Below are positions 11,566 to 60,261 of a DNA stretch of 64,000 nucleotides, in pieces. The stretch covers positions 625,128-689,127 of the forward strand of contig CAWAXG010000002.1 of the NCBI GenBank assembly GCA_963785755.1, read 5' to 3'. A program made the translations under genes and the position numbers. The DNA is from an uncultured Acidobacteriota bacterium. GTDB taxonomy: Bacteria > Acidobacteriota > Vicinamibacteria > Vicinamibacterales > 2-12-FULL-66-21. Numbering within the stretch: position 1 is the first letter of the stretch; the number at the start of each line of letters is the position of its first letter. Under the pieces are notes generated by a model. The model saw only the letters and a program-made list of their open reading frames with translations. It did not search any database and was not told where the DNA came from.

Positions 11566-13079
11566 CAGGAGGCTCCTTCGGGAGCGGGCTCCGACGCCCC
11601 ACGCCCCGCGGCGGTCCGGTGGTCCTTGATTACGCGTTCGGTGCCGGGCTGCCAATGCGGATCGGCCTGCGGCAGCACGGTCTTGACCTCGGCGGTTGCC
11701 ACCATCGGAAGAAAGCGCACGAACAGGCAGAACATCGTGAAGAAGAGCCCGAAGCTTCCAAGCAGGCACGCCACGTCCCAGAACGTGGGAGTGAAGTAGC
11801 TCCAGGCCGAGGGCAGGAAGTCACGGTGCAGCGACGTCACGATAATCACGAACCGCTCGAACCACATGCCGATGTTGATCACGATCGACACTACGAACAG
11901 GATCGGGATGCTCGTGCGCGCCTTCTTGGACCAGAAAATCTGGGGGCTGATCACGTTGCAGGTGACCATGATCCAGTAGGCCCAGGCGTACGGTCCCAGG
12001 GCGCGGTTCATGAACGTGAAGTACTGGTACGGGTTCCCGCTGTACCAGGCGGTGAAGAACTCCGTGGCATAGGCGTAGCCCACCATCGATCCGGTCACCA
12101 ACATGATCTTCGCCATGTAGTCGAAGTGCCGGAGCGTGATGATGTGCTCGAGGCCGAACGCCTTGCGGCAGATCACCATGAGCGTCAGCACCATGGCGAA
12201 CCCGGAAAAGATCGCGCCCGCGACGAAGTACGGCGGGAAGACCGTCGTATGCCATCCGGGGAGGAGGGAGACCGCGAAATCCATCGAGACGATCGAATGA
12301 ACCGAGAGGACCAGCGGCGTCGCGAGGGCCGCGAGAATGAGATACGCGGATTCGTAGTGATGCCATTGCCGCACGGAGCCCCGCCATCCGAGAGCGAAGA
12401 GACCGTAGACGAACTTCCTCGTCGGAGTCTTCGCCCGATCGCGCATCGTCGCCAGGTCCGGGATCAGGCCGATGTACCAGAACAGGACCGAGACGGTTCC
12501 GTAGATGCTGACCGCGAAGACGTCCCAGAGAAGAGGGCTCCTGAAGTTGGGCCACATGCCCATCTGGTTCGGGAGCGGGAACATCCAGTAGGCGACCCAG
12601 ACGCGTCCCACGTGGATCCCGGGAAACGTCAGGGCACACATGACTGCGAAGATGGTCATGGCCTCGGCGGAGCGATTGATCGACGTGCGCCATTTCTGGC
12701 GGAAGAGGAACAGGATCGCTGAGATGAGCGTGCCGGCGTGCCCGATCCCGACCCAGAACACGAAATTCGTGATGTCCCACGCCCATCCGACGGGGACGTT
12801 GAGGCCCCAGATGCCGATCCCCTCCCAGAACAGCCATGAGACCGCGACGCCGAGCAGGCCGAGGAGGGCGACCGATGGGATGAAGAAGATCCACCAGCCG
12901 ATCGGTGTCGGCCGTTCGATCGGCTCCGCGACGACCTCGGTGATTGAGTGAAAATCCGGCGAGCGCAGGATGAGCGTCGGCCGGCCCGCGACAGGGTTGT
13001 CTAGCAGTTCTGCTTCCGTCTGGGCCAAGCCCGCTCCCGCGTTGAGTTTTGAAAAGTGGCCGTTTGTACCATCGCGCAT
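11565..13079 (-). CDS. actC: ACIII ActC-like quinol-interacting NrfD/PsrC-family membrane subunit
   Basis: 504 aa. [43 protein letters not shown] is typical of ActC/NrfD. Confidence 0.85.
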
Positions 13080-15312: not shown

Positions 15313-16476
15313 AGTTCCTGCCGCTGGTCATCCGCAATCTGGGACGGCGCAAGGTCAGGACGATTTTCACGATCCTGTCGATCATGATCGCCTTCCTCCT
15401 GTTCGGCGTCTTGATGGCGATCCGCGCGGCGTTCAGCATGGGCGTCGACATCGCCGGCGCCGATCGGCTGATGGTGATCCACAAGATGGGGTTCATGATG
15501 CCGCTGCCGCCCGGCCACGGCCCCAAGATTCGCGCCACGCCGGGCGTGACCGATGTGACGCATGCGAACTGGTTCGGCGGGTACTACCAGGAGCCGAGCA
15601 ACTTCCTGGCGAACTTCGCCGTCGACCCGGAGAGCTGGCTCAGGATGTATCCGGAGTATCAGGTACCGGAAGAGCAGAAGAAAGCCTGGTTCGCCAACCG
15701 GGCCGGTGCGATCGTCGGTATCGACACCGCCAAGAAATTCAACTGGAAAATCGGCGATCGGGTTCCACTCATCTCACCGATTTACCGGAAGCCGGATGAT
15801 ACGCCGTGGGATTTCACGATCGACGGGATTTACGACGCGACAGCGCCGGGCGTGGACAAGACACAATTCTTCTTCCACTACGAGTACATGAACGAGGCGC
15901 TGCGTGCCGCCAACGTCAGGCTCAGCGACATCATCGGCTGGTACATCGTACCGTGTTGACGATCCGGCTTCTGCCGATGCACTCGCCAAACGAATCGACC
16001 AGGTATTCGAGAACTCGACCGGAGAGACGAAAACAGCGACCGAAAAGGCGTTCGCCGCGGACTTTGCGAACCAGGTCGGCGACATCGGCACGATCATGAT
16101 CGCGATCACCGGGGTGGTCATGGGGTTCATCCTGTTCGTCGCGGGGAACTCGCTGGCGCAGTCCGTCCGTGAACGCATCAACGAGCTGGGCGTGCTGAAG
16201 ACCCTCGGCTTCACGGACGGCCGGATCCTGGCGATTGTGCTGCTGGAATCCTGCACCATTGCGGTCATCGGCGGCGGCATCGGCCTGCTCCTGGCCTGGG
16301 TCATCATCGCCCAGGGGGATCCCACAGGCGGGTTCCTGCCGATCTTTCACTTCCCGCCGCGCGACCTGATCTTCGGCATCGCCCTCGTCGGCATCCTCGG
16401 GATCGCCACCGGCCTCATCCCGGCGCTGCAGGCCAGCCGATTGAAGATCGTGGACGCATTACGTCGAGCGGGATAG
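15309..16476 (+). pseudogene. ABC transporter permease (FtsX/MacB_PCD type); one frame disruption as assembled
   Basis: ORF 15309..15959 continues in ORF 15904..16476 (..GWYIV|RVDDPASADALAKRID..). An extra C at ATCGTA[C]CGTGTT (about 15951). The FtsX C-terminus is intact. Confidence 0.85.
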
Positions 16477-16477
16477 G

Positions 16478-16578
16478 TACGAGCACGGAGCACGTGAGCA
16501 CAGCACGTAGCACATAGCAGGTGAGCACGTGGCACATGAGCACGTGAGCACGCAGGACGTCGCACCCAGCACGTAGAC
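16478..16578. repeat. Short-period array of (R)TGAGCAC / GTAGCAC units (array A)
   Basis: gagcacggagcacgtgagcacagcacgtagcacatagcaggtgagcacgtggcacatgagcacgtgagcacgcaggacg lies between the two permease genes. Confidence 0.85.
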
Positions 16579-16591
16579 GAGGCTTTCACCC

Positions 16592-17779: not shown

Positions 17780-17799
17780 AGGCCGCTGTCCACAAAGAC

Positions 17800-18135
17800 G
17801 GGGCACCGGCCGGTCAACGGTGGTCCCACGTCTCGGAAGTCATTCATTTTCATACAATTATAAGGATCGTGTAATACCGTAGAGCTTATGTATTGATTTC
17901 AGACGGGCGAGAGCGAGGAAAGTACACTTTCCGGCTGAAGTCTGCGTCTTTCGCCAGGACTGTCCGCCACGAACGGTTCGGCTAACTCAAAGTTGGATAA
18001 CCACTTACCCTCCACTATCGGCCGGAGACGCCCAGAACTTCAGCGCAGAATCTCTCGGGGTACGACAGTTGCACTTAAGGGTGCACACAGCAAGACCAGC
18101 AGTCGGTGCAGGAAACTAGTAAAGGGAGGAATCCC
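17800..18135. other. AT-richer non-coding island upstream of a small ORF
   Basis: The only visibly low-GC stretch in the window (e.g. cattcattttcatacaattataaggatcgtgtaataccgtagagcttatgtattgatttc). No convincing ORF. It contains sigma70-like hexamers TTCATA-17nt-TAATAC. Confidence 0.4.
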
Positions 18136-18384
18136 ATGCTCATCGATGAAGTGCTCCAGAGAATACAAGGGGAATTCGTCGAGATGCCTGGGCTCCGACT
18201 GACCGCCCCACAGGCACAGCGTCTGTGGGGATTGGAGCGCGACCTTTGTGATGCGCTGCTTGGTGCCCTCGTGGATGCCAAGTTCTTGTCTCAAACGCGA
18301 GACGGAGCGTTTGTCCGCCAGGACGGCGCCCTGCCAACGCGGATTACGAACGGTCGGCGCGGTCATTCGTTGGCTGTCGCCTAG
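18136..18384 (+). CDS. Small hypothetical protein (82 aa), possibly winged-helix-like
   Basis: An AAGGGAGG Shine-Dalgarno sequence lies 6 nt before the ATG at 18136. MLIDEVLQRIQGEFVEMPGLRLTAPQAQRLWGLERDLCDALLGALVDAKFL. No family recognised with certainty. Confidence 0.5.
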   Translation: MLIDEVLQRIQGEFVEMPGLRLTAPQAQRLWGLERDLCDALLGALVDAKFLSQTRDGAFVRQDGALPTRITNGRRGHSLAVA

Positions 18385-18488
18385 GTTTACCCTACCGGTG
18401 CCGGTCGGCTGACTACCTGCCTCGTCAGCCTGAACAAACCGGCTCGCGTCCCCCGCTCCCGGGCGATGGCGCCCGCGGCCAGGTTTCG

Positions 18489-18523
18489 TCGAAGGTTGAG
18501 GGCTTCCGGCCCTCCACCTTCGA
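18489..18523. terminator. Strong GC hairpin between convergent genes (candidate bidirectional terminator)
   Basis: tcgaaggtTgagggc-ttccg-gccctcCaccttcga gives 8+6 bp of stem. There is no clear U-tract. Confidence 0.45.
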
Positions 18524-18540
18524 CATCACTCCTCTACCAA

Positions 18541-18640
18541 CGTGCTCCGTCCTGCGTGCTGGGTGCTCACGTGCTCCGCGTGCTACGTGCTCACGTGCTC
18601 ACGTGCCTTTCGGGCTACGTGCTCACGTGCTCACGTGCTC
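18541..18640. repeat. Short-period array of GTGCTCAC / GTGCTAC units (array B, reverse orientation of array A)
   Basis: cgtgctccgtcctgcgtgctgggtgctcacgtgctccgcgtgctacgtgctcacgtgctcacgtgcc...gctacgtgctcacgtgctcacgtgctc. Confidence 0.85.
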
Positions 18641-28279: not shown

Positions 28280-29089
28280 ATGGCGTTCCGGACGGGGCCG
28301 GGCGATCATCATGACGTGAGCCTTGGCAGGATCGGCGGCGTGCTGACCGCGCTCCGGCGCTTTCTTACTCCGCGGCGCGCCCGCCGTGAGGCGGTTCTCA
28401 CGGCGCCGGTTCCCCGCCCGTGGCTGGAGTTCCTCGAGGCGCGATCGGATCACTACCGGCGTCTGCCCCTCCCCTACCGCAGCGAGTTCCAGAATCAACT
28501 CCGGATATTTCTGTCAGAGAAGCGCATTACCGGGGTGCACATCGCCATCACCGACGAGATCAGGCTGCTCGTCGCGGTCTCGGCCGTCACGCTGACGGTC
28601 GGCTGGCCCGGCTATACGTGGGATCGGCTGGCCGAAGTAATCGTGTACCCCGACAACTTCGACCGTGACTACCGCCTCGGCCGCCCTGTTCTCGCGGGTC
28701 AGGCACACCCCTGGGGCGTGGTGATTCTCTCCGCTCCTGCCCTGTTTCGCAGCTTTGACGAGTCGCACGACGACAATCACCTCGGCTACCACGAGTTCGC
28801 GCATCTCTTCGATCGCTCGCAGACGGGTGGGATTCCCGTCCACCTGTCCGACGAGGCGATCCGGCGGTGGGTGGCGATTATGCGGCGCGAAGACGAGCGG
28901 CTTCGGAACGGGACGTCCGTGCTGAATCCGTATGCGCTGTCCGCCCCGAACGAGCTGTTCGCGGTCGCGGTCGAGACGTTCTTCCAGCGACCGGTCGCCT
29001 TGATGGATGCACACCTCGAGCTCTATTCGTTTCTCGCGGGCTATTTCCAGCAGGATCCGGCGGTGTGGGCCCGGGGGTCGCCGGCGTAG
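28280..29089 (+). CDS. M90 (MtfA-like) zinc metallopeptidase
   Basis: YHEFAHLFD (HExxH). Overall length and layout fit the MtfA/DUF980 family. Confidence 0.7.
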   Translation: MAFRTGPGDHHDVSLGRIGGVLTALRRFLTPRRARREAVLTAPVPRPWLEFLEARSDHYRRLPLPYRSEFQNQLRIFLSEKRITGVHIAITDEIRLLVAVSAVTLTVGWPGYTWDRLAEVIVYPDNFDRDYRLGRPVLAGQAHPWGVVILSAPALFRSFDESHDDNHLGYHEFAHLFDRSQTGGIPVHLSDEAIRRWVAIMRREDERLRNGTSVLNPYALSAPNELFAVAVETFFQRPVALMDAHLELYSFLAGYFQQDPAVWARGSPA

Positions 29090-29222
29090 TCGATTCAGAA
29101 AGGTGACCGTTGTAAACCAGTCATCGTGGCGAGCTCCCCGAAGAAACGGTCAACACGGCCACGGCACCTCGCGACCGGCCAACCGAAAACGCCAGCCTCA
29201 TGTTTCGCGCTACACTGTCTTC

Positions 29223-29453
29223 ATGCCACTTTTCGAGTATCAATGCGGAGATTGCGAACAGGAGTTCGAGGCGTTCGTCACCGCCGACCGCAAGGCCGAG
29301 TGCCCGGCGTGCCACGGGGAAAACCTCAGGAAGCTGCTGTCGAGCCCGGGAATGGTTGGCGCGGCAAACGGCAGCCGCCGCGACGCCTCAGCACCAATGC
29401 CCGGCCGATGCGGCGCCGGCGGCGCGCACTGCGCCTGCCGCAGCGACCACTGA
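29223..29453 (+). CDS. FmdB-family zinc-ribbon protein
   Basis: MPLFEYQCGDCEQEFE...AECPACHG (CxxC..CxxC regulatory zinc ribbon). Confidence 0.75.
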   Translation: MPLFEYQCGDCEQEFEAFVTADRKAECPACHGENLRKLLSSPGMVGAANGSRRDASAPMPGRCGAGGAHCACRSDH

Positions 29454-29476
29454 CGTCATAGTCCGATCCGTATTGG

Positions 29477-29504
29477 GGCGCGCGAAAACGTTCGACCGCG
29501 CGCC
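29477..29504 (+). terminator. GC hairpin downstream of the zinc-ribbon gene
   Basis: ggcgcgcg-aaaacgttcgac-cgcgcgcc gives an 8-bp stem. No U-tract. Confidence 0.4.
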
Positions 29505-29597
29505 GGAAATACGATCTTCGTCCGGACGACCCGCGCACCGTCTCCCCCTCGTAGTCCCCGCCTGCCTGTGCTATCGTGCGGCGCAACGCGCCGCCGG

Positions 29598-29676
29598 TTG
29601 AACCTTGAACCTTTGAACCTTTGAACTTTTTGAACCCGAACCCCTGAACCCGTGAACCCTTGAACTCCTGAACCTT
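29598..29676. repeat. Short-period array of TTGAACC-type units (array E)
   Basis: ttgaaccttgaacctttgaacctttgaactttttgaacccgaacccctgaacccgtgaacccttgaactcctgaacc lies directly upstream of the pmbA-like gene. Confidence 0.9.
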
Positions 29677-29685
29677 TAATCCAGC

Positions 29686-31038
29686 ATGTTTTCGCGAGAT
29701 CAAGTCAAAGCCATCACCGACAAGGTCATCGACATGGCGAAGGCCGACGCCGTCGAGGTCGAGTTCAACGGCGGTGAGCGTTCGGCGACCCGGTTCGCCA
29801 ACTCGAACATCACGGCGAACATGGTCCAGTTCGATCGCACCGTCTCGCTGACCATCCATCTCGGCAACAAGTCCGGAACGGCCACGGTCCGCGACGTCGA
29901 CGACGCGACGTTGAAGCAGGCGGTGGCGGATGCGCAGAAGCGAGCGGAGGAGGCCCGCGAGAGCACCGAGCCCCCCGTCCTGCTCGGACCGCAGGAGTAC
30001 GAGCCGGTCGAGGCGGCTTTGCCCAGCGGGATCAACTACGGTCCGGCCGAACGCGCGAAGGCCGTACGCCAGAGCCTCGATATCTGTAGCAAGAAGGGAG
30101 TCCTCGGCTCGGGCTACATCCCGAAGTCGCATCTGACGACCTGCTCGGCCAACTCCAAGGGACTCTTCGCTTATTACCAATACGCCGAGGCGAGCTTCAT
30201 CCTCACGGTCCGCACGAAAGACGGCGCCGGCTCGGGCTGGGCAGGCATTACCGGGGTCAAGGACACGAGCCTGATCGACGCCGCGCAGCTCACCGAGACC
30301 GCGGCTGACAAAGCGATCAAGAGCCAGAAGGCACGCGCCCTGGAGCCCGGACGGTACACCGTGATCCTCGAGCCGCGGCCCGCGGCGCGGTTCCTGTCGC
30401 TGATGCTGGGGCTGTTCACGGCGCGCACCGCGGAGGGCCCGGTCGGCAATTACTTCAGCGGCAAGGAACGCGGTACGACCAAAGTCGGCGAGAAGGTCTT
30501 CAGCGAGATGTTCACGCTGCGGAGCGATATCGGCAACCCGATTCTGCGCCAGACGCCGGTCGGCGCCGATGGAGCGGCCGCGCGCGACGTCCCCTGGATC
30601 GAAAAAGGCGTCCTCAAGAACCTGTATTACGACCGCCAGTGGGCGACCAGACAGAAGAAGGAGCCGACGCCGAGCACCGTCAACAACAGCCTGGTCATGG
30701 AAGGCTCGGACATGACGGTGGAACAGATGATCAAGAGCACCCGGCGCGGTCTGCTGGTCACGTTCTTCTGGTACATCCGCGCCGTCGATCAACCGACGCT
30801 GCTGAACACCGGGATGACTCGCGACGGGCTGTTCCTGATCGAGAACGGCGAAATCGCGGGTCCGGTGCAGAACTTCCGCTGGAACATGTCGCCGATTGTC
30901 GGGTTCAACAACATCACAGCGGTAGGCAAACCGTCCCCGATTCACACCGGCGAGTCCTACGACGGCCCCGGCACGGCGCTGGTACCGCCGGTGCGGATGG
31001 AGGATTTCTACATGACCTCGGTATCGCCGGCGGTGTAG
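29686..31038 (+). CDS. TldD/PmbA-family metalloprotease (PmbA-like)
   Basis: 450-aa intact ORF with typical family architecture. Paired with a TldD-like gene downstream. Confidence 0.8.
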
Positions 31039-31054
31039 ACGTACTGTCGCTACC

Positions 31055-31300
31055 CGTGCTGCGTGCTGTGTGCTACGTGCTCACGTGCTCTTCGTGCGAC
31101 GTGCGACGTGCGACGTGCCAACATGCGACGTGCGATGTGCCAACGTGCCCGGCCGTGCTACGTGCGGCGGCGCCAAGCACGTTCGCACGTTGCACCTAGC
31201 ACGTTCGCACGTGGCACGTAGCACGTACCACGTGGCACGTGAGCATGTAGCACAAAGCACGGAAAGCACATGAGCACGCAGCACATGGCACGCAGCACGT
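31055..31300. repeat. ~245-bp imperfect palindrome built of GTGCNAC / GNTGCAC heptamers (array C)
   Basis: The left arm is GTGC-oriented (gtgctacgtgctcacgtgc..gtgcgacgtgcgacgtgcgac..). The right arm is GCAC-oriented (..gcacgttcgcacgtggcacgtagcacg..). The centre is near 31165-31175. Mirror ORFs 31070..31273(+) and 31081..31284(-) both begin MLRAHVL. Confidence 0.9.
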
Positions 31301-31315
31301 AATCAGAGGCCACCA

Positions 31316-32990
31316 ATGCATCGTCGAGACTTCGTCAAGACCATGGCGCTCTCGGGCGCCGCCATCGCCGCCAGCGATCTCGTCGGCGATCTGATCGCGC
31401 AGACGCCGCAAGGCAAGGTGCTCGAGTCGCGGTTCAAGGGACTCGGAGACGTGGCGCTTGCCGAGGCGAAGCTGACCGGATGCTCGTACGCCGATATCAG
31501 GTTCACGCGACGCACCAACTCGAGCGTGAACGCGAACGGCGGGAACAGCGACTTCGCCGACGCGTTCGGCGGGCGCGGGGGACGCGGCGGGCGTGGCGGC
31601 GGCCGCGGGCGTGGCGGCGGCGGCGATTTCGGCGGCGGAAACGCCGGCCTTGGCGGGGCTGATGAAACCGCGGGACGCGGCGCCGCCGGCTTCGGCGTGC
31701 GCGTGATTCACAGCGGGGTCTGGGGCTTCGCGAGCAGCCCGATCGTGACCGAGGACGAGATCCGCCGTATTACCCGCCTCGCGACCGAGGTCGCCAAGGC
31801 CAGCGCCATCGCCAAACAGCGCGACGTCGTCCTCGCGCCGGTGCGCGCGCATACCGAGGACCTGGGCCACCCCGATTCAGCAGGATCCGGGCAAGATTAC
31901 GCAGGACGACAAACGAGCGCTGGTGCAGAAAGTGGTCGACATCGCGATCAAGAACAAAGAGGTCGTCAGCGTGACCGCCTCTGTCGGCGTCGAGCACGAG
32001 TGGAAGTACTTCGCGAGCTCCGAAGGGTCTTACATCGAGCAGGAAGCCTGGTCGGTCTCGCCATCTTTCACGGTCACCGCGCGGAAGGACGGCCAGACGC
32101 GCTCTCGCACGTATACCGGCGAGATGATGACCGGCGGCTGGGAGATCGCCGAGCGCGCGCAGATGCCGGAGAACGCCGAGCGCATTGCGGTGGAGGCGGT
32201 CGAATTCTGCACCGCCAAGCCGGTCGAGATGGGCCTCAAGGATCTCATCCTGACGCCGTCACACGCGATGCTGACGATCCACGAAATCGTCGGCCACGCG
32301 ACCGAGCTCGACCGAATCCTGGGCTACGAGGCGAATTACGCAGGAACGAGCTTCATCAGGCTCTCCGACCTCGGCAAACTGAAATACGGCTCGAAGCTGT
32401 TCAACATCACCGCCGACCGGACGATCCCTGGCGGCGTCGGCACGATCGGGTATGACGACGATGGCGTGAAGACGCAGGAGTGGCCCCTCGTCAGGGAGGG
32501 GATCCTGGTCGGCCTGCAGACGAACCGCGAGATGGCGCATCTCATCGGCGAGAAGGCCAGCCGCGGCTGCACATCCGCGAACTCGTGGCGCGACTACCCG
32601 TTCCTGCGGATGCCGAACGTGCACCTCGATGCGGGCCCCGCCGGCTCGCCGACGCCCGAACAGATCATCGCCGACACCAAGGACGGCGTCCTGATCGACG
32701 GCCGCGGCAGCTATTCGATCGATCAGCAGCGATACAACGGACAGTTCGGCGGCAACGCGTTCTGGGAAGTCAAGAACGGCAAGATCACGCGGATGGTGAG
32801 CAACGTCACCTACAACGCGATCACGACCGACTTCTGGGCGAACCTCGACGCGATCTCGGGCAAGGAGTCGTGGCGGATGTTCGGAACCGGCGGCGACGCG
32901 AAAGGGCAGCCCACCCAGACGAACAGCATCACGCACGGCTCGCCGTATCTCCGGATCCGCCGCATCATGATCGGGGCGGCGTACGCTTAG
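31316..32990 (+). pseudogene. TldD-family metalloprotease with Tat-type signal; one frame disruption as assembled
   Basis: MHRRDFVKTMALSGAAIAA (twin-arginine). ORF 31316.. continues in ORF 31923..32990 (..HTED|WATPIQQDPGKITQDDKRALVQKVVD..). An extra C at GAGGAC[C]TGGGCC (about 31862). HEIVGHATELD is present. Confidence 0.85.
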
Positions 32991-33072
32991 ACAAGTACGA
33001 AGTGACCGGTGATAAGGCGCAAGTAACAAGGCGCAACGTAGACGTTCCGTTGTACTTGCGCCTTGCAACTTG

Positions 33073-34881
33073 TTACTTGTTGTCAACCGACTTCCTGAGC
33101 GTCCGCTCCACTCGAGTCGCCGGCTGTCCGGCGATGCCCACCGTCGCCCGGACGATGTAGTCGCCGGGAGTCAGCGCGCCGATGGGGACGGCGGCCGTGG
33201 CGCTGTGATGATCGCCGGCCGCGGCGAGTGTGCCGGGGACGGTCAGAATTGCGGGCCCGTTCAGCGAGCGAGCCAGCTCGAACGTGGCCGTTACCTGTTC
33301 ACCGGGCTTCCCTCCGTAAATATCGACATACGCCAGCACGACCGGCTCGGTGCCGAACTGAAGCCTCGGCATGAAGCCGCCACGTGAGAGCCCGAGGAGC
33401 AGAGAGCTCAGGTGCAGCGTGCCGGCCTGGCGCAGCTCCGCCGTGAACTCGTAGTCGGCAGTTCCGGTCCGGCCTTGAGAATCGGTGGCCGCAAAGCGAA
33501 GCCGGTAGGTCCCGGGCGGGACGAGCATTGCCGTAGGGTACGGGCCGGCCTTCAGCTGGGCCGGTTCGAGCGTTGCCTGCGCAACCAGTTTGCCGTTGCT
33601 GTCCACGAGACCCGCAGCGGCGGCCGTCAGCGTGACTGATGGATCGACCGTCTCTCCGAGCGCGACGATCTTGAGCTTCGTCTGGCCGGGTTCGCGTGAG
33701 GCGAATCCGGTCACGCGCAGCGGCAGGTCACGAAACAGCGTGGCCTGGCGCAGCATGTCGGCAGGCGATCGGGTGCTCTTGGCATCGGATTTCGCGATCA
33801 GGATGCTCGGACGGACGCGAACGGTCACATCGGGGCGCGACACGCGGAGCTCGACCCGGTGCGAGTTTCCATTGCGCTGCGACGACTCCGGCTCGAACGC
33901 GATCCGATAGAAGGCGGACGTCTCGCGGAGAATACGAGTGAATGCGCTTTCCTCCGTTCCGCCGAGGTGCAGCCGGACTCCGCTGGTGACGCCAGCCAGA
34001 TGGTCCAGCCCGGCGACCTGATTGGAGAACCCGATCGGTTCGATGATGTACAACCGTGTCCCCGCAAGCGCCGCCGCGTTCCCGACCTGCTGGAACATGT
34101 CCGGCAGCAGCGCGCAGCCCGCCACCGTCTGACCGGCGCGCATGACCTGCTCATTGGGACCAACCATGCTGGCGGAGAAAAAGGTGACCGTCACCGGCGA
34201 CGTGCTGGCTGCGAGACTCTGCATCAGCCCGGTCAGCGAGTCGAGCGTACGCCTCGTGCGGCAGGCCATCTCGTCCGGCGTTTCAGTCCTGGCTGCCTGA
34301 CCGACGACCTGCGCCAGCGATGCGCGCACCTTCTCCTGCTCCGTCGTCAGATCGACCCTCGTGCCGCCATACGGCAAGGTGACGAGGGCGATGCGGTCGG
34401 TCGGCACGAGATTGTCGAGGAAGGTATCCGCCGCTTCCTGCAAGGCGCGCTCGGTGCCGACACGAAATGAATCGTCGTCCACGACCAGGACGAACGACCG
34501 CGACTCCTCGGATTGCACGTTCGTGCCGAACGGCGGCGGAAGCGGCGAGAGTGGCGCGCGTCCGGCCACTGGCGACGCCGCGTCGATGAGACTCATCGAG
34601 TGCACGGGGCGCACGCGCCCGCCGATCCGAAGCATCACCTCATCGGCTTTCACGTCAGGCACCGGGCGGCCGTCCTTGGCCAGCGCCAGGAAGTCAATCG
34701 AGACCAGGCTGACGCCGCTCTTGAGCACGGGACCCCGCTCCTGGAGGGTGCTCGCCGACAGCTGTTCTTCTCGGCTCGCGGGCATGTGTAAGACCAGGGT
34801 CGAAGCGGCGACGAACGCGGCCGCGGCCCTTGCGACAGGGCGTATGAATGTCCAACGCTGATCAAATGCTCCGGGAAACAT
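33073..34881 (-). CDS. VWA domain protein (acidobacterial TIGR03436-like)
   Basis: SGVSLVSIDFLALAKDGRPVPDVKADEV... and FVLVVDDDSF..DRIALVTLPYGG (VWA/MIDAS-like). Start chosen at MFPGAF (34881). Confidence 0.7.
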   Translation of the reverse strand: MFPGAFDQRWTFIRPVARAAAAFVAASTLVLHMPASREEQLSASTLQERGPVLKSGVSLVSIDFLALAKDGRPVPDVKADEVMLRIGGRVRPVHSMSLIDAASPVAGRAPLSPLPPPFGTNVQSEESRSFVLVVDDDSFRVGTERALQEAADTFLDNLVPTDRIALVTLPYGGTRVDLTTEQEKVRASLAQVVGQAARTETPDEMACRTRRTLDSLTGLMQSLAASTSPVTVTFFSASMVGPNEQVMRAGQTVAGCALLPDMFQQVGNAAALAGTRLYIIEPIGFSNQVAGLDHLAGVTSGVRLHLGGTEESAFTRILRETSAFYRIAFEPESSQRNGNSHRVELRVSRPDVTVRVRPSILIAKSDAKSTRSPADMLRQATLFRDLPLRVTGFASREPGQTKLKIVALGETVDPSVTLTAAAAGLVDSNGKLVAQATLEPAQLKAGPYPTAMLVPPGTYRLRFAATDSQGRTGTADYEFTAELRQAGTLHLSSLLLGLSRGGFMPRLQFGTEPVVLAYVDIYGGKPGEQVTATFELARSLNGPAILTVPGTLAAAGDHHSATAAVPIGALTPGDYIVRATVGIAGQPATRVERTLRKSVDNK

Positions 34882-36771: not shown

Positions 36772-38907
36772 ATGGCGACGCTGCTCCGCCGTCTGCGCTA
36801 CCTCTTCAACCGGGAACGATACGAACGCGAGCTCGCCGAGGAGATCGAGACGCATCGCGCGATGGTCGAGGAACGCCTCCTTCCTTCTGTTGGTCAAGAA
36901 CCTCCCGCAAGCCGAAGGGTCATGGGGAACATCACGCTCGCGCGCGAGGATGCGCGGGGCGTCTGGGTCTGGTCCTGGCTCGACAGCACATGGCAGGACG
37001 TTCGTTACGCGGTTCGGAATCTCGGCCGCGAGCCCGGCTTCGCGATCCTCGCGCTGGCGACGCTAGGAATCGGCATCGGCGTCAACACCAGCCTACTCAC
37101 CGTGTTCAGTGCCCTGTTCCTTCGGCCATGGCCCGTCCCCGATCCCTCGACGCTCTTCGAGGTCACCGTCGACTATGGCAGCGCGAACTCTCGAAACGAG
37201 GAGTTCTCGTTCCCGGAATACCTTCATCTGCGTGAGCACGCGCGATCGGTCAGCGGCTTGATCGCGTCGGCGTGCGCTGACAATCGTGAGCCGGAATGCC
37301 GCTTCACGCTCGACGACGAGCGCGTGAGCACGCTGCTCGTGAGCCGCAATTACTTCGATGTCCTCGGCATCGCGATGGAGCAGGGGCCGGGGCTGGCTGG
37401 ACCGGAGACGAGGCAGGATGCGGTCGCGGTCATCAGCTATGCGCTGTGGCAGCAGCGATTCGCGTCGGATCGGGCCATCATCGGGAAGACCGTTCACATC
37501 AACTCGGTGCCGTTCACCGTGCTGGGCGTCGCTCCTCGAGATTTCGGCGGCACATCGTTCGCGCGCAAGGACGTGTGGATTCCGCTGGGATCGCGGGACC
37601 TCGCGCAGCCCCACGCACAGACGCCCCTGGAGACTCGATTGGCCGCGCGACTCGGCCCGGACGTGGCGCGGCAACACGCCACGTCCGAGCTCGATGCGCT
37701 CCATCGCCGGTACCGGGCCGACGTCGAACGTCTGATCGGCCGGACGATCACGCTCGACGACGTGCCGGTGATGGTGGTCGGTGTGACCGCGGCCGGATTC
37801 GCCGGGACGAAATTCGAACGTGTGGACCTCTGGCTGCCGCTGGCTGCCGCCGCGGTGTTCCGTCCGAACGAACGCTGGGTTCGCGACGAGATTTCGGTCG
37901 GGACCGGTCCAGGTCCGCGCTTGTCCGGCTACCTGGCGCTCGCCGGTCGGCTCGCGCCCGGCGCCACACGCGCGCAAGCCGAGGCTGAGCTCACCTCGCT
38001 GGCCATGGAGTTCGATCCGTCACGGCGCCGCGGCGGCAGGGGTCTCCGGACGTTCGGCACGGCCGGAGCCGACGCGCCCGGCGGCGTGAACACTGCCGCG
38101 TTCCTCCAGATGTTCGGCGCCGTGCTGGCGGTGCTCCTTCTCGCCTGCGCGAACGTGGGGAATCTGCTGCTGGCGCGGGCCCACGCCAGACGGCGTGAGA
38201 TCGCGATGCGGCTCTCGCTCGGCGCCAGCCGATCGCGAGTCGTGCGTCAGCTGCTCGTCGAGAGCTTCGTGCTGGCGCTGGGCGCTGGAGCACTGGGCCT
38301 GTTGCTGACGCTCCATCTCCCGCGGCTGGCGCTCGAAGCCGCGGCGCGGCAGCCAACGGCATTGCAACTTCGGCCGGACCTGCCCGTGTTGGGTTTCACG
38401 TTTGCGATCTGCGCCCTGGCGTGTCTCCTGTTCGGTCTCGCGCCCGCGCTCCATGCTACGCGCCGTAACGTTTCCGACGCGCTCAAGGGCGACGCGCCGC
38501 TGCAGAGCGTGCGATTTTCGGTGCGGAATGCTCTATTGTCGGTGCAGGTCGCGCTCAGCGTGATTCTGCTCGTCGCCGGCGGACTGCTGATTCGTGGCGT
38601 GCAGCACGCGCACCGGCTGGACCACGGCTTCGACGTCGGCGGAGTCACGCTGATGTCGTTCGAGCCGCCGGTTTCGAGCTACGACGCCGCGCGCACTCGG
38701 GTGTTCACGCAGCAGCTCGCGCAACAGCTCGACACGCTCGCGCAACGCGTGCCGATCGGCATCACGCACGTCGCGCCGTTCGGCAGCGGCAACCTCAAAG
38801 GCACCTATCTCGTTCCAGGCTCGAGCGAGGAGCTGTTCAACGCCGTCTACGAGGTATCGCCCTCGTATTTCAACGTGCTTCGGATTCCCGTGTTGCGGTG
38901 TGAGTGA
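36772..38907 (+). pseudogene. ADOP-family MacB-like permease lacking the second FtsX domain (in-frame internal deletion suspected)
   Basis: Typical N-terminus (RRLRYLFNRERYERELAEEIETH), then PCD1, FtsX1 and the start of PCD2. It then jumps from ..YFNVLRIPVL to the canonical terminal RCE*. The neighbour gene ends ..VVALRCE*. PCD1 also carries an internal ~110-aa diverged duplication. Confidence 0.75.
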
Positions 38908-38960
38908 GTTCAAAGGTTCAAGGGTCCAAGGGTTCAAGGTTCACTGATTCGAGGGTTCAG
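38907..38960. repeat. Short-period array of GGTTCAA-type units (array F, reverse of array E)
   Basis: agttcaaaggttcaagggtccaagggttcaaggttcactgattcgagggttcag. Confidence 0.85.
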
Positions 38961-38963
38961 AGA

Positions 38964-51426: not shown

Positions 51427-51436
51427 TGTAGTAAAC

Positions 51437-51532
51437 CCTGACCGAGCCCACCTGATCCCCTGATCCCCGATCCCGAAGACACGCCCGAGCCCCGAGTCCC
51501 GAGTCCCGAGCAGTCCCGAATCCCGAGTCCCG
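51437..51532. repeat. Short-period array CCTGATCCC/CCGATCCC plus CCCGAGT units (array H, reverse of array G)
   Basis: cctgaccgagcccacctgatcccctgatccccgatcccgaag...cccgagccccgagtcccgagtcccgagcagtcccgaatcccgagtcccg lies in a divergent intergenic region. Confidence 0.85.
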
Positions 51533-51569
51533 TCGAGATGCGAATAAGAGGAACCCCGACGCCGGGAAG

Positions 51570-54069: not shown

Positions 54070-54096
54070 GTCAGGGAGTGACCAGGTGTGAGCCCT

Positions 54097-54126
54097 TGGG
54101 AGTTGGAGGTTGGGAGTTGGAGTTCT
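54097..54126. repeat. GGGAGTTGGAG-type short repeat (array K)
   Basis: ttgggagttggaggttgggagttggagttc. Reverse copies lie at 55171-55185 and 55277-55295, and a forward copy at 55381-55399. Confidence 0.8.
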
Positions 54127-54192
54127 CACTGCTGCGTTTCTCGGCACCCTGTTAAGTCCAGACTCCCGTCCTCCCTTCCTCCCTGTGAATAA

Positions 54193-60035: not shown

Positions 60036-60250
60036 TACGTGCTTTCGTCCGTGTGCTACGTGCTCGGTGCTGGTGCTGGGTGCTACGGTGCCTGCGTGCG
60101 GAGGGCGAACGTGGAGGCGACGGGCGACGAGCGGTGCCGCGCGCGATGCTTCCCAGCCGTCAGCTGGAGAACGCAGCAGTAGCACGGAGCACTGAGCACG
60201 GAGCACGCAGCACCGCACGTGAGCACGTAGCACGCAGGACGTAGCACTGA
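60036..60250. repeat. Split inverted array of GTGCT... / ...AGCAC heptamers (array D) in a divergent promoter region
   Basis: Left arm, about 60036-60101: tacgtgctttcgtccgtgtgctacgtgctcggtgctggtgctgggtgctacggtgcctgcgtgc. Right arm, about 60172-60250: agcagtagcacggagcactgagcacggagcacgcagcaccgcacgtgagcacgtagcacgcaggacgtagcac. Confidence 0.85.
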
Positions 60251-60261
60251 GAGAATATCCG

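Follow-up and report, generated by a model that had tools for sequence, protein, structure and literature searches.

What is a long palindrome doing between pmbA and tldD, and does it serve the operon in which it sits? The question is raised by a stretch of 64,000 nt, the whole of which is called the window below, from an uncultured Acidobacteriota bacterium of the Vicinamibacterales (GenBank assembly GCA_963785755.1, contig CAWAXG010000002.1, positions 625,128 to 689,127 of the forward strand), an order that is among the most abundant in soil and genetically almost unstudied. In this window, the 277-nt spacer that separates the stop codon of pmbA from the ATG of tldD (at 31316) harbours a pair of opposed short-repeat arrays at 31055-31300, which will be referred to as the element. 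Comparison shows it to be a hypervariable inverted heptamer repeat of an abundant family, which is resized by entire units and by a deletion centred on its apex, and a hairpin recurs at the same spacer in relatives with unrelated sequences. The reading that we prefer, with a probability of roughly 0.55, is that the element is one locus of a family found across the Vicinamibacterales, which would be built by slippage and templating and looped out of the mRNA, any effects on expression being secondary. It most likely does not represent a regulatory device tailored to pmbA-tldD.

Two opposed arrays of one core

The original prediction for this locus, made from the sequence alone, described an imperfect palindrome of ~245 bp with a GTGC half and a GCAC half around a GC-rich centre. 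This is indeed what the sequence holds, with 14 units in the left arm and 16 in the right (Table 1). The left arm contains, as had also been stated, three copies of GTGCGAC (31094-31114), together with two of GTGCCAAC (31115-31122 and 31137-31144). Tandem Repeats Finder (TRF) reports a period of 7 in both arms (6.7 copies of CGTGCGA and 17.1 of AGCACGT), and repeat finding detects two in-register stretches of the arms, one of 61 nt with 79% complementarity and one of 57 nt with 81%. The pattern GTGC-N3-GTGC-N3-GTGC, expected 0.03 times in the window, has 12 matches, all of which fall inside the element or inside a second one at 60053-60213. The possibility of an artefact was rejected, since four assemblies, made independently and deposited by two sources (ENA and JGI), all contain the element.

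The mirror open reading frames (ORFs) that had been pointed out on the two strands do exist, at 31070-31273 on the plus strand (VLRAHVL...EST) and 31081-31284 on the minus strand (VLRAHVL...KST). They were rejected as genes, being by-products of the symmetry that a codon-log-odds gene caller leaves uncalled; like ORF 30639-31199, they run through because the left arm is mostly free of stop codons. A role of the GT-rich first arm as a supplier of stops in all frames was likewise rejected, TGA, TAA and TAG being absent over most of it.

One long hairpin in a probably bicistronic mRNA

Folding 31040-31315 as RNA, which had been proposed as a check, yields a single hairpin of ~105 bp with a minimum free energy (MFE) of -169.9 kcal/mol, compared with -124.1 +/- 4.7 kcal/mol in dinucleotide shuffles (z = -9.8, 0/200 as good); folded as DNA, the sequence reaches -98.2 kcal/mol (z = -7.5). 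Permuting the units of the right arm still leaves an RNA fold of -157.1 +/- 5.8 kcal/mol, 6 of 200 permutations equalling the real sequence, and true mirror order is kept by the outer ~five units only. In the predicted structure, stability is mainly due to two opposed arrays of one 4-nt core pairing in many registers, not to strict mirror order, in agreement with the very long and register-tolerant hairpin that had been foreseen for the mRNA. The single arrays of the window were also considered as hairpins and rejected, for the segments that hold them (16470-16591, 29590-29685, 38905-38963 and 51427-51569) have folds that are not more stable than those of shuffled sequence (z between -0.4 and +1.5); the hairpin therefore belongs to paired arrays and not to repeats as such. 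The predicted foot of the hairpin includes the tldD ribosome-binding site, in a base helix of 5 bp, all of which are invariant among four strains.

The two genes are probably co-transcribed, which would place the element within a bicistronic mRNA, because relatives have spacers of 7-30 nt and because the arrays of the hairpin end only 15 nt before the tldD ATG. These 15 nt bear the ribosome-binding site and leave no space for a promoter of tldD's own downstream of the hairpin. A consensus scan of 29000-33500 identified neither a sigma-70-like promoter nor a terminator in or after the element, and no intrinsic terminator is discernible in 31039-31315, where the hairpin is followed by TAATCAGAGG instead of a U-tract.

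Resizing among close strains

Identical PmbA is encoded on three metagenome contigs (L001-L003, the L-numbers designating related loci), and in the four strains that these make up with the window, which have 100% identical PmbA, the spacer measures 277, 283, 257 and 137 nt. Over 13.3 kb, the window has 99.65% identity to L001 and differs from it by just two indels, one in the array and the other causing the frameshift in tldD, and their substitutions number 6 in the 245 nt of the element vs 34 in the ~13 kb outside. Relative to L003, every indel is inside an array or on its border, apart from a 1-nt site of frameshift in tldD. Those connected with arrays consist of 16 + 9 nt in the TTGAACC array upstream of pmbA, whose copy number differs accordingly, 1 nt at the 3' edge of the palindrome and a 139-nt deletion (31103-31241), which is centred on the apex and leaves a shorter hairpin (z = -8.3). 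Among strains that are 98-99.6% identical, arrays are thus resized, and no presence/absence polymorphism is seen.

Within the arms, three double-sided compensatory changes distinguish the four strains, with L002 intermediate; a 3-nt compensatory cluster has TCA in the left unit of the window and GAA in that of L003, the corresponding right units having TGA and TTC, respectively. These changes are suggestive of two arms that are kept matched. L002 itself shows 51 gap openings over 16.8 kb in comparison with the window and many fragmented genes; it looks like an error-prone long-read assembly, whose repeat copy numbers need caution.

One spacer, unrelated repeats

A wider comparison with related genomes, by which the palindrome was to be judged, covered 80 genome loci with 58-89% PmbA identity, nearly all from Vicinamibacterales or Acidobacteriota metagenome-assembled genomes, and pmbA-tldD spacers were extracted from 79 sequences (the window and 78 loci). 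The symmetry recurs and the sequence does not: a long single hairpin (z < -3) is present in 29/45 spacers of at least 60 nt, window included, and is formed from different units (the opposed pairs are listed in Table 1). The remaining 34 sequences have spacers shorter than 60 nt, with a median of 21.5 nt (interquartile range 14.5-29.5), and the unpaired tails of the 29 hairpin spacers sum to a similar length, with a median of 18 nt (interquartile range 12-26).

The content of the spacer is not in step with the similarity of the genes. It is unrelated in L005, L004 and L009 (85-89% PmbA identity), the last of which, although among the closest (86-92% over two alignment segments), has a spacer of just ~5-13 nt. 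The spacers of L007 and L008 are unrelated while their pmbA genes are 93.6% identical in DNA, and L019, at 75% PmbA identity, has both its unit and its 3' flank in common with the window. In the group with GGCT units, the left arm has a greater resemblance to its own right arm, reverse-complemented (0.26), than to the orthologous left arms of other genomes (0.13). Direct repeats also occur at this spacer, namely 2 copies in L007 (7357-7495) and 6 in L012 (7357-7579) of a 22-mer resembling GCGTAACTACGGTGTTCATA, while that of L005 (7354-7510) comprises two copies of a ~50-nt unit, each with a small hairpin of its own.

A lineage-wide class of arrays

How singular is such an element? TRF was run on 1.02 Mb, the window plus the loci, with genes called by a purpose-written codon-log-odds caller that matches the official calls on L001 and with intergenic regions defined as those of at least 40 nt (n = 461). 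This census returned 355 short-unit arrays. Period 7 dominates among the non-coding ones, with 132 arrays compared with 43 for period 8 and 55 for period 9, whereas those that lie inside coding sequence have periods of 6, 9 and 12, with just 7 of period 7. Arrays are present in 128/461 intergenic regions (28%) and inverted arrays in 70 (15%), that is, in 48/292 co-directional, 13/95 divergent and 9/74 convergent spacers, so that no enrichment of hairpins at convergent spacers was seen in the 461 regions. Among array-bearing spacers of at least 80 nt, ~60% are inverted vs 64% at the pmbA-tldD spacer.

Arrays are found over all the PmbA identity bins that were sampled, and the GTGC-N3 pattern itself recurs in the loci of five other species. 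Pairs of array-bearing spacers have 6-mers in common more often within a genome (13.7%) than between genomes (2.6%). The median distance from the upstream stop codon to the beginning of an array is 7-13 nt (2 nt for convergent spacers), and that from its end to the following start codon is 40-49 nt. Arrays also obey an orientation rule, the 5' arm of inverted pairs having more G than C in 53 of the 70 spacers of the window and the 80 loci (L004-L083) and more C than G in 13 (it is GT-rich in 54 vs 16); on the sense strand, G outnumbers C in the arrays closest to a stop and C outnumbers G in those closest to a start. As an inverted arrangement is its own reverse complement, this G-rich-arm-first rule is strand-symmetric. 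In the element, the 5' arm of the main stem has 11 G and 9 C. A search of the literature for repeats in Acidobacteria or Vicinamibacter found nothing specific.

How the element may arise and be tolerated

The reading that we favour would account for these observations as follows. The units are degenerate heptamers (sometimes of 8 or 9 nt) with a conserved 4-nt core, arranged about half the time as two opposed arrays. Replication slippage would build and resize the arrays by whole units, as the differences between strains suggest, while arm-to-arm templating, in other words quasi-palindrome template switching, and apex-symmetric deletions would keep the arms similar. Slippage and quasi-palindrome template switching are both established mutational mechanisms. 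No specific sequence would be required, the same spacer being able to carry GGCT-N3, CACGAAG, GAGGATTT, CCAAGCT, other units or nothing. In the bicistronic mRNA, the ~105-bp hairpin would loop out an insertion of ~260 nt, so that stop codon and ribosome-binding site stay adjacent, and since the unpaired distance of ~18 nt is like that of insertion-free relatives (21.5 nt), the insertion would be tolerated inside an operon whose two products should work jointly. Effects on expression would be secondary and tunable by copy number, rather than the reason why the element exists; they might include cleavage by RNase III, protection of the pmbA mRNA from 3' exonucleases and masking of the ribosome-binding site. 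A role in mRNA processing or stability is possible.

Several points weigh against this reading: (i) small unpaired tails are partly guaranteed if a spacer is filled by arrays and folded by a program that pairs freely, (ii) a few units recur at several loci per genome, which a pure neutral model fails to explain, (iii) nor does such a model explain the 53-vs-13 bias towards G-rich 5' arms, (iv) the mirror order of units provides modest extra stability only (z = -2.2), (v) the covariation among strains is not significant, 64/500 shuffles matching it in a set of 4 sequences with a structure derived from one of them, (vi) some differences in copy number could be assembly errors, L002 being ridden with frameshifts and the window having at least one, and (vii) co-transcription is argued solely on the grounds that relatives have short spacers and that a promoter would have no room.

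That roughly a quarter of spacers bear hypervariable arrays, half of them as long hairpins, accounts for many of the 'odd palindromes' to be met in scans of these genomes, and it marks array sites as hotspots for assembly error and strain-level indels. The pmbA-tldD spacer offers a natural series (no insert, different units, different lengths) for testing the effects of hairpins on operon expression.

Relation to known repeat families

The element is an instance of a known, although poorly understood, kind of bacterial repeat, here reported for a new phylum. Intergenic heptamers with degenerate units, a conserved core and no function found were described in Xanthomonas, as (GGGAATC)n, and in Nostoc, as (GGGGAYT)n (Rehm et al. 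2015, PMC4692102), where the over-representation of heptamer repeats is credited to Mrazek et al. 2007. In Xanthomonas, they occupy ~185 loci per genome, form 70-75 convergent inverted pairs per genome that are capable of making stem-loops, and vary in length between close species, their single or inverted type being usually preserved (PMC4692102).

The Vicinamibacterales arrays resemble both groups in (i) their 7-nt units, which are degenerate but keep a conserved core (GTGC-N3 here and GGGANTN in those groups), (ii) their intergenic bias and many loci and (iii) the variation of their length and sequence between close relatives, with the caveat that assemblies may miscount repeats. With those of Xanthomonas, they also have in common convergent inverted pairs and a rule of orientation relative to ORFs. 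They differ in lacking the potential for G-quadruplexes, as GTGC-N3 units are without the G3 tract, which is a property of the Xanthomonas/Nostoc subfamily and not of heptamer repeats generally. They also differ in that several unrelated unit families coexist in a genome, hairpins are much longer (up to ~105 bp) and one syntenic spacer carries different units by lineage. Divergent spacers, which are depleted in Xanthomonas, are not depleted here. That the heptamer phenomenon, with its rule of orientation, now extends to a third phylum is an argument in favour of some general mechanism, and the lineage-wide pattern and cross-phylum rule are the parts most worth attention.

The (ATCTTTC)n repeat in the 5' untranslated region of hmw1A in Haemophilus influenzae is one arm of a long hairpin that is processed by RNase III (PMC12721329), and this hairpin is a regulatory target that has been linked to repeat instability (PMC12721329). 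Here too, a heptamer repeat of variable copy number sits in a long hairpin, albeit a predicted duplex whose transcription is deduced from operon context. In hmw1A, however, the repeat pairs with a G-rich region that is not itself a repeat, and a single locus, that of a phase-variable adhesin, is concerned, whereas here both arms are repeat arrays, lie between two cistrons and belong to a genome-wide family. Tandem intergenic heptamers are also known as the TAACTGA direct repeats of Beggiatoaceae, Cyanobacteria and Bacteroidetes and as the STRR sequences of cyanobacteria (MacGregor 2015, PMC4679880). Like the arrays described here, these often lie just upstream of starts and vary in copy number, their function being unknown (PMC4679880), but the TAACTGA repeats form 169 direct sets and one indirect, with one AT-rich unit per genome (PMC4679880), while about half of the arrays here are inverted and many units are GC-rich.

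Repetitive extragenic palindromic (REP) sequences of gamma-proteobacteria, with their BIME and REPIN arrangements, are likewise dispersed, extragenic, often in inverted pairs with long hairpins and organised in genome-specific families, and inside operons REP/BIME can stabilise the upstream mRNA, as described in PMC3733652 and as generally known. REPs are discrete imperfect palindromes of 20-40 nt and of fixed sequence (with a GTAG/CGTC tag), tied to RAYT transposases and rare in divergent spacers; by contrast, the copies at 16481, 18540, 31055 and 60040 of the window share just the 7-nt unit and neither length nor ends. Finally, the clustered arm-matching changes and the apex-centred deletion are like those generated by quasi-palindrome template switching and palindrome-stimulated deletion in E. 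coli, as generally known, which constitute a mutational mechanism and not an element family and, for templating, are deduced here from four sequences only. In Rfam 15, nothing in the window matched at the gathering score; plant miRNA-precursor matches that surfaced in a permissive scan were set aside as chance (39 bits vs a gathering score of 168).

Alternative explanations

The best of the rivals to a hypervariable repeat, if an unlikely one, is that the element is an adaptive post-transcriptional device, a substrate for RNase III and/or a barrier to exonucleases that would split the mRNA, its copy number tuning the TldD:PmbA ratio. An imperfect duplex of ~105 bp far exceeds the length that RNase III needs, the predicted base helix would sequester the ribosome-binding site, there is a precedent in the hmw hairpin of H. 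influenzae, whose cleavage by RNase III sets expression (PMC12721329), and such a device would be in keeping both with the recurrence of a hairpin at this spacer from different units and with the compensatory changes among strains. These changes, however, do not amount to significant covariation, and spacers of 5-30 nt suffice in relatives both near and far. Furthermore, the inverted arrangement is no commoner at pmbA-tldD than at other array-bearing spacers of at least 80 nt, and divergent genes, between which no single transcript can cover the two arms, have it just as often.

More doubtful is that an undescribed DNA-level process, be it a dedicated enzyme or a repair pathway, seeds and propagates heptamer arrays and their inverted copies in the Vicinamibacterales. 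Were it true, such a process, perhaps also at work in Xanthomonas and Nostoc, would explain the recurrence of units in each genome, the spacer swaps that outpace gene divergence and the cross-phylum G-rich-arm-first rule, and hairpins would be the footprints of a self-templating genomic element instead of passive products of slippage.

It is improbable that the element is a non-autonomous mobile element, akin to MITEs (miniature inverted-repeat transposable elements) or REPINs, or the product of a dedicated repeat-generating enzyme. The GTGC/GCAC unit does occur at four or more loci in 64 kb, unit sharing is about five times commoner within than between genomes, and the independence of spacer content from pmbA similarity and the strand-symmetric orientation rule could be seen in the same light. 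But copies have only the unit in common, and not length, boundaries, loop or flanks; their flanks show no target-site duplication, and no terminal inverted repeats distinct from the arrays are found. Close strains present resized arrays rather than filled and empty sites, and several unrelated unit families coexist in one genome. Pfam annotation covered ~20 ORFs of the window, and no search for transposases was made.

A dedicated terminator or decoupler of the two genes, both of which the original prediction had entertained, is not borne out and must be considered decidedly unlikely, even in the form of a U-tract-independent, possibly bidirectional terminator or insulator. The hairpin is very stable, arrays begin close to stop codons, above all in convergent spacers, and similar inverted arrays do lie between convergent genes, for example at 32991-33072 of the window. 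These features are offset by the missing U-tract and downstream promoter, by the mere 15 nt between hairpin and tldD ATG and by relatives whose genes are 7-30 nt apart. The TldD and TldE proteins of E. coli work as a heterodimer, which also speaks against decoupling. Moreover, the same architecture is found in 15% of intergenic regions, with divergent spacers as likely to have it as convergent ones.

Least likely of all, and very improbable, is a transcription-independent DNA-level element, whether a cruciform or a periodic protein-binding array acting on nucleoid or topology: the stable DNA fold, the occurrence of inverted arrays regardless of gene orientation and an apex-centred deletion typical of palindrome instability fit it, but arms only ~80% complementary around a centre of 13-18 nt are unfavourable for extrusion, units that vary between genomes and loci suit no single DNA-binding specificity, single arrays without structure make up about half of the total, and a period of 7-8 nt is out of helical phase.

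Other features of the window

Table 1. Coordinates of the element, its flanking genes and the other arrays of the window, followed by the opposed unit pairs at the pmbA-tldD spacer of related loci.
Feature	Position or locus	Strand	Basis
PmbA/TldE-like gene, 450 aa, without HExxxH; TAG stop at 31036-31038	29686-31038	+	Pfam PmbA_TldD_1st, 2nd, 3rd domains; motif check
Base helix, 5' side, GTCGCT, 8 nt past pmbA stop; 5 bp with 31305-31310	31046-31051	+	MFE structures, four strains
Left arm, 14 units, GTGC core (once ATGC) plus 3-6 variable nt	31055-31162	+	Sequence, repeat finding, TRF, pattern match
GC-rich apex/centre, TGCGGCGGCGCCA	31163-31175	+	Sequence, fold
Right arm, 16 units with terminal GCAC core (once GCAT); TRF consensus AGCACGT	31176-31300	+	
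Shine-Dalgarno-like AGAGG plus C, base helix, 3' side, 6 nt before ATG	31305-31310	+	
TldD-like gene, Tat-type N-terminus, disrupted by 1-nt insertion near 31863	31316-32990	+	Pfam; strain comparison
Single array, GTGC/GCAC unit family (GAGCACGT), between two FtsX/MacB-type permease ORFs	16481-16574	+	
Single array, GTGCTCAC units, beside stop of minus-strand AhpC/TSA gene	18540-18640	+	
Array of a different unit, TTGAACC[C], directly upstream of pmbA, unstructured	29598-29674	+	
Array of the reverse-complement unit (GGTTCAA; GGTTCAAG), upstream of MacB-type permease gene	38908-38959	+	
Further arrays of other units	51451-51532 and 54096-54184		
Second GTGC/GCAC inverted pair, arms ~60040-60100 and 60166-60251, ~65-nt non-repeat centre	60040-60251	.	
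Opposed unit pair CCAAGCT / AGCTTGG	L004		
Opposed unit pair CACGATG / CATCGTG	L011		
Opposed unit pair GGCT-N3 / N3-AGCC	L006, L008, L017, L018, L021, L027, L045		
Opposed unit pair CACGAAG / CTTCGTG	L010, L047, L054		
Opposed unit pair ATTGCTA / TAGCAAT	L013		
Opposed unit pair GAGGATTT / AAATCCTC	L041, L043, L052, L058		
Opposed unit pair GGTGGGTCG / CCGACCCAC	L046		
Opposed unit pair GTGCGAC / GTCGCAC	L019		

The second inverted pair of the window sits between a guaB-like gene on the minus strand and a divergent NUDIX gene on the plus strand, in a spacer of 236 nt which as a whole folds at z = -6.7. Of the single arrays of the same unit family, that at 16481-16574 has no stable fold (z = -0.4) and that at 18540-18640 pairs weakly with itself via CACGTG (z = -3.6). 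The idea that AGCACG arrays always lie in the sense orientation in 5' leaders was dropped, the array at 18540 being actually in a convergent spacer, as the supposed minus-strand gene starting at 18526 is a mere 33-codon ORF. Arrays of TTGAACC/GGTTCAA occur upstream of genes in both orientations. The stretch 17780-18540, which separates a MacB-type permease gene from the GTGCTCAC array, has no long ORF with a high GC content at third codon positions, and only a plus-strand ORF of 92 aa (18106-18384), which was assigned to no family.

The tldD-like gene, whose intact orthologue in L001 carries the motif HEIVGH, differs from L001 and L003 by a 1-nt insertion near 31863 and a substitution at 31859 (31855-31866), and the resulting frameshift leaves two ORFs (31316-32455 and 31923-32990). 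Removal of one base restores a protein of 557 aa, 554/557 identical to that of L001; the gene is either a pseudogene or the victim of an assembly error. Near its N-terminus, an in-frame 9-nt tandem repeat (CGGCGGGCG, 6.6 copies, 31567-31625) encodes a low-complexity insert rich in Gly and Arg (GGRGGRGGRGGG...).

Right after tldD, the strains differ by an indel of ~4.1 kb (window 32990-33073, L001 13306-17463, L003 8632-12756). The extra genes in L001 and L003, absent from the window, include one that is outer-membrane beta-barrel/TonB-dependent-receptor-like (OMP_b-brl_4, in L003 also CarboxypepD_reg). Short inverted repeats lie by this indel, in the window at 33009-33078, where motifs recur every ~7 nt, and in L003 at 12700-12745, the downstream end of the insert.

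At the other end of the window, a radical-SAM/SPASM gene is apparently in two frames (1331-2771), with Radical_SAM at 1331-1984 and SPASM + PCP_red at 1719/2031-2771. Inside the second ORF lies a 13-nt tandem repeat (CGGGGACAGGCAA, six copies, 2086-2163), the 78 nt of which correspond to 26 codons; the split may reflect a further frameshift of the window, or else a linker may be what the repeat codes for.

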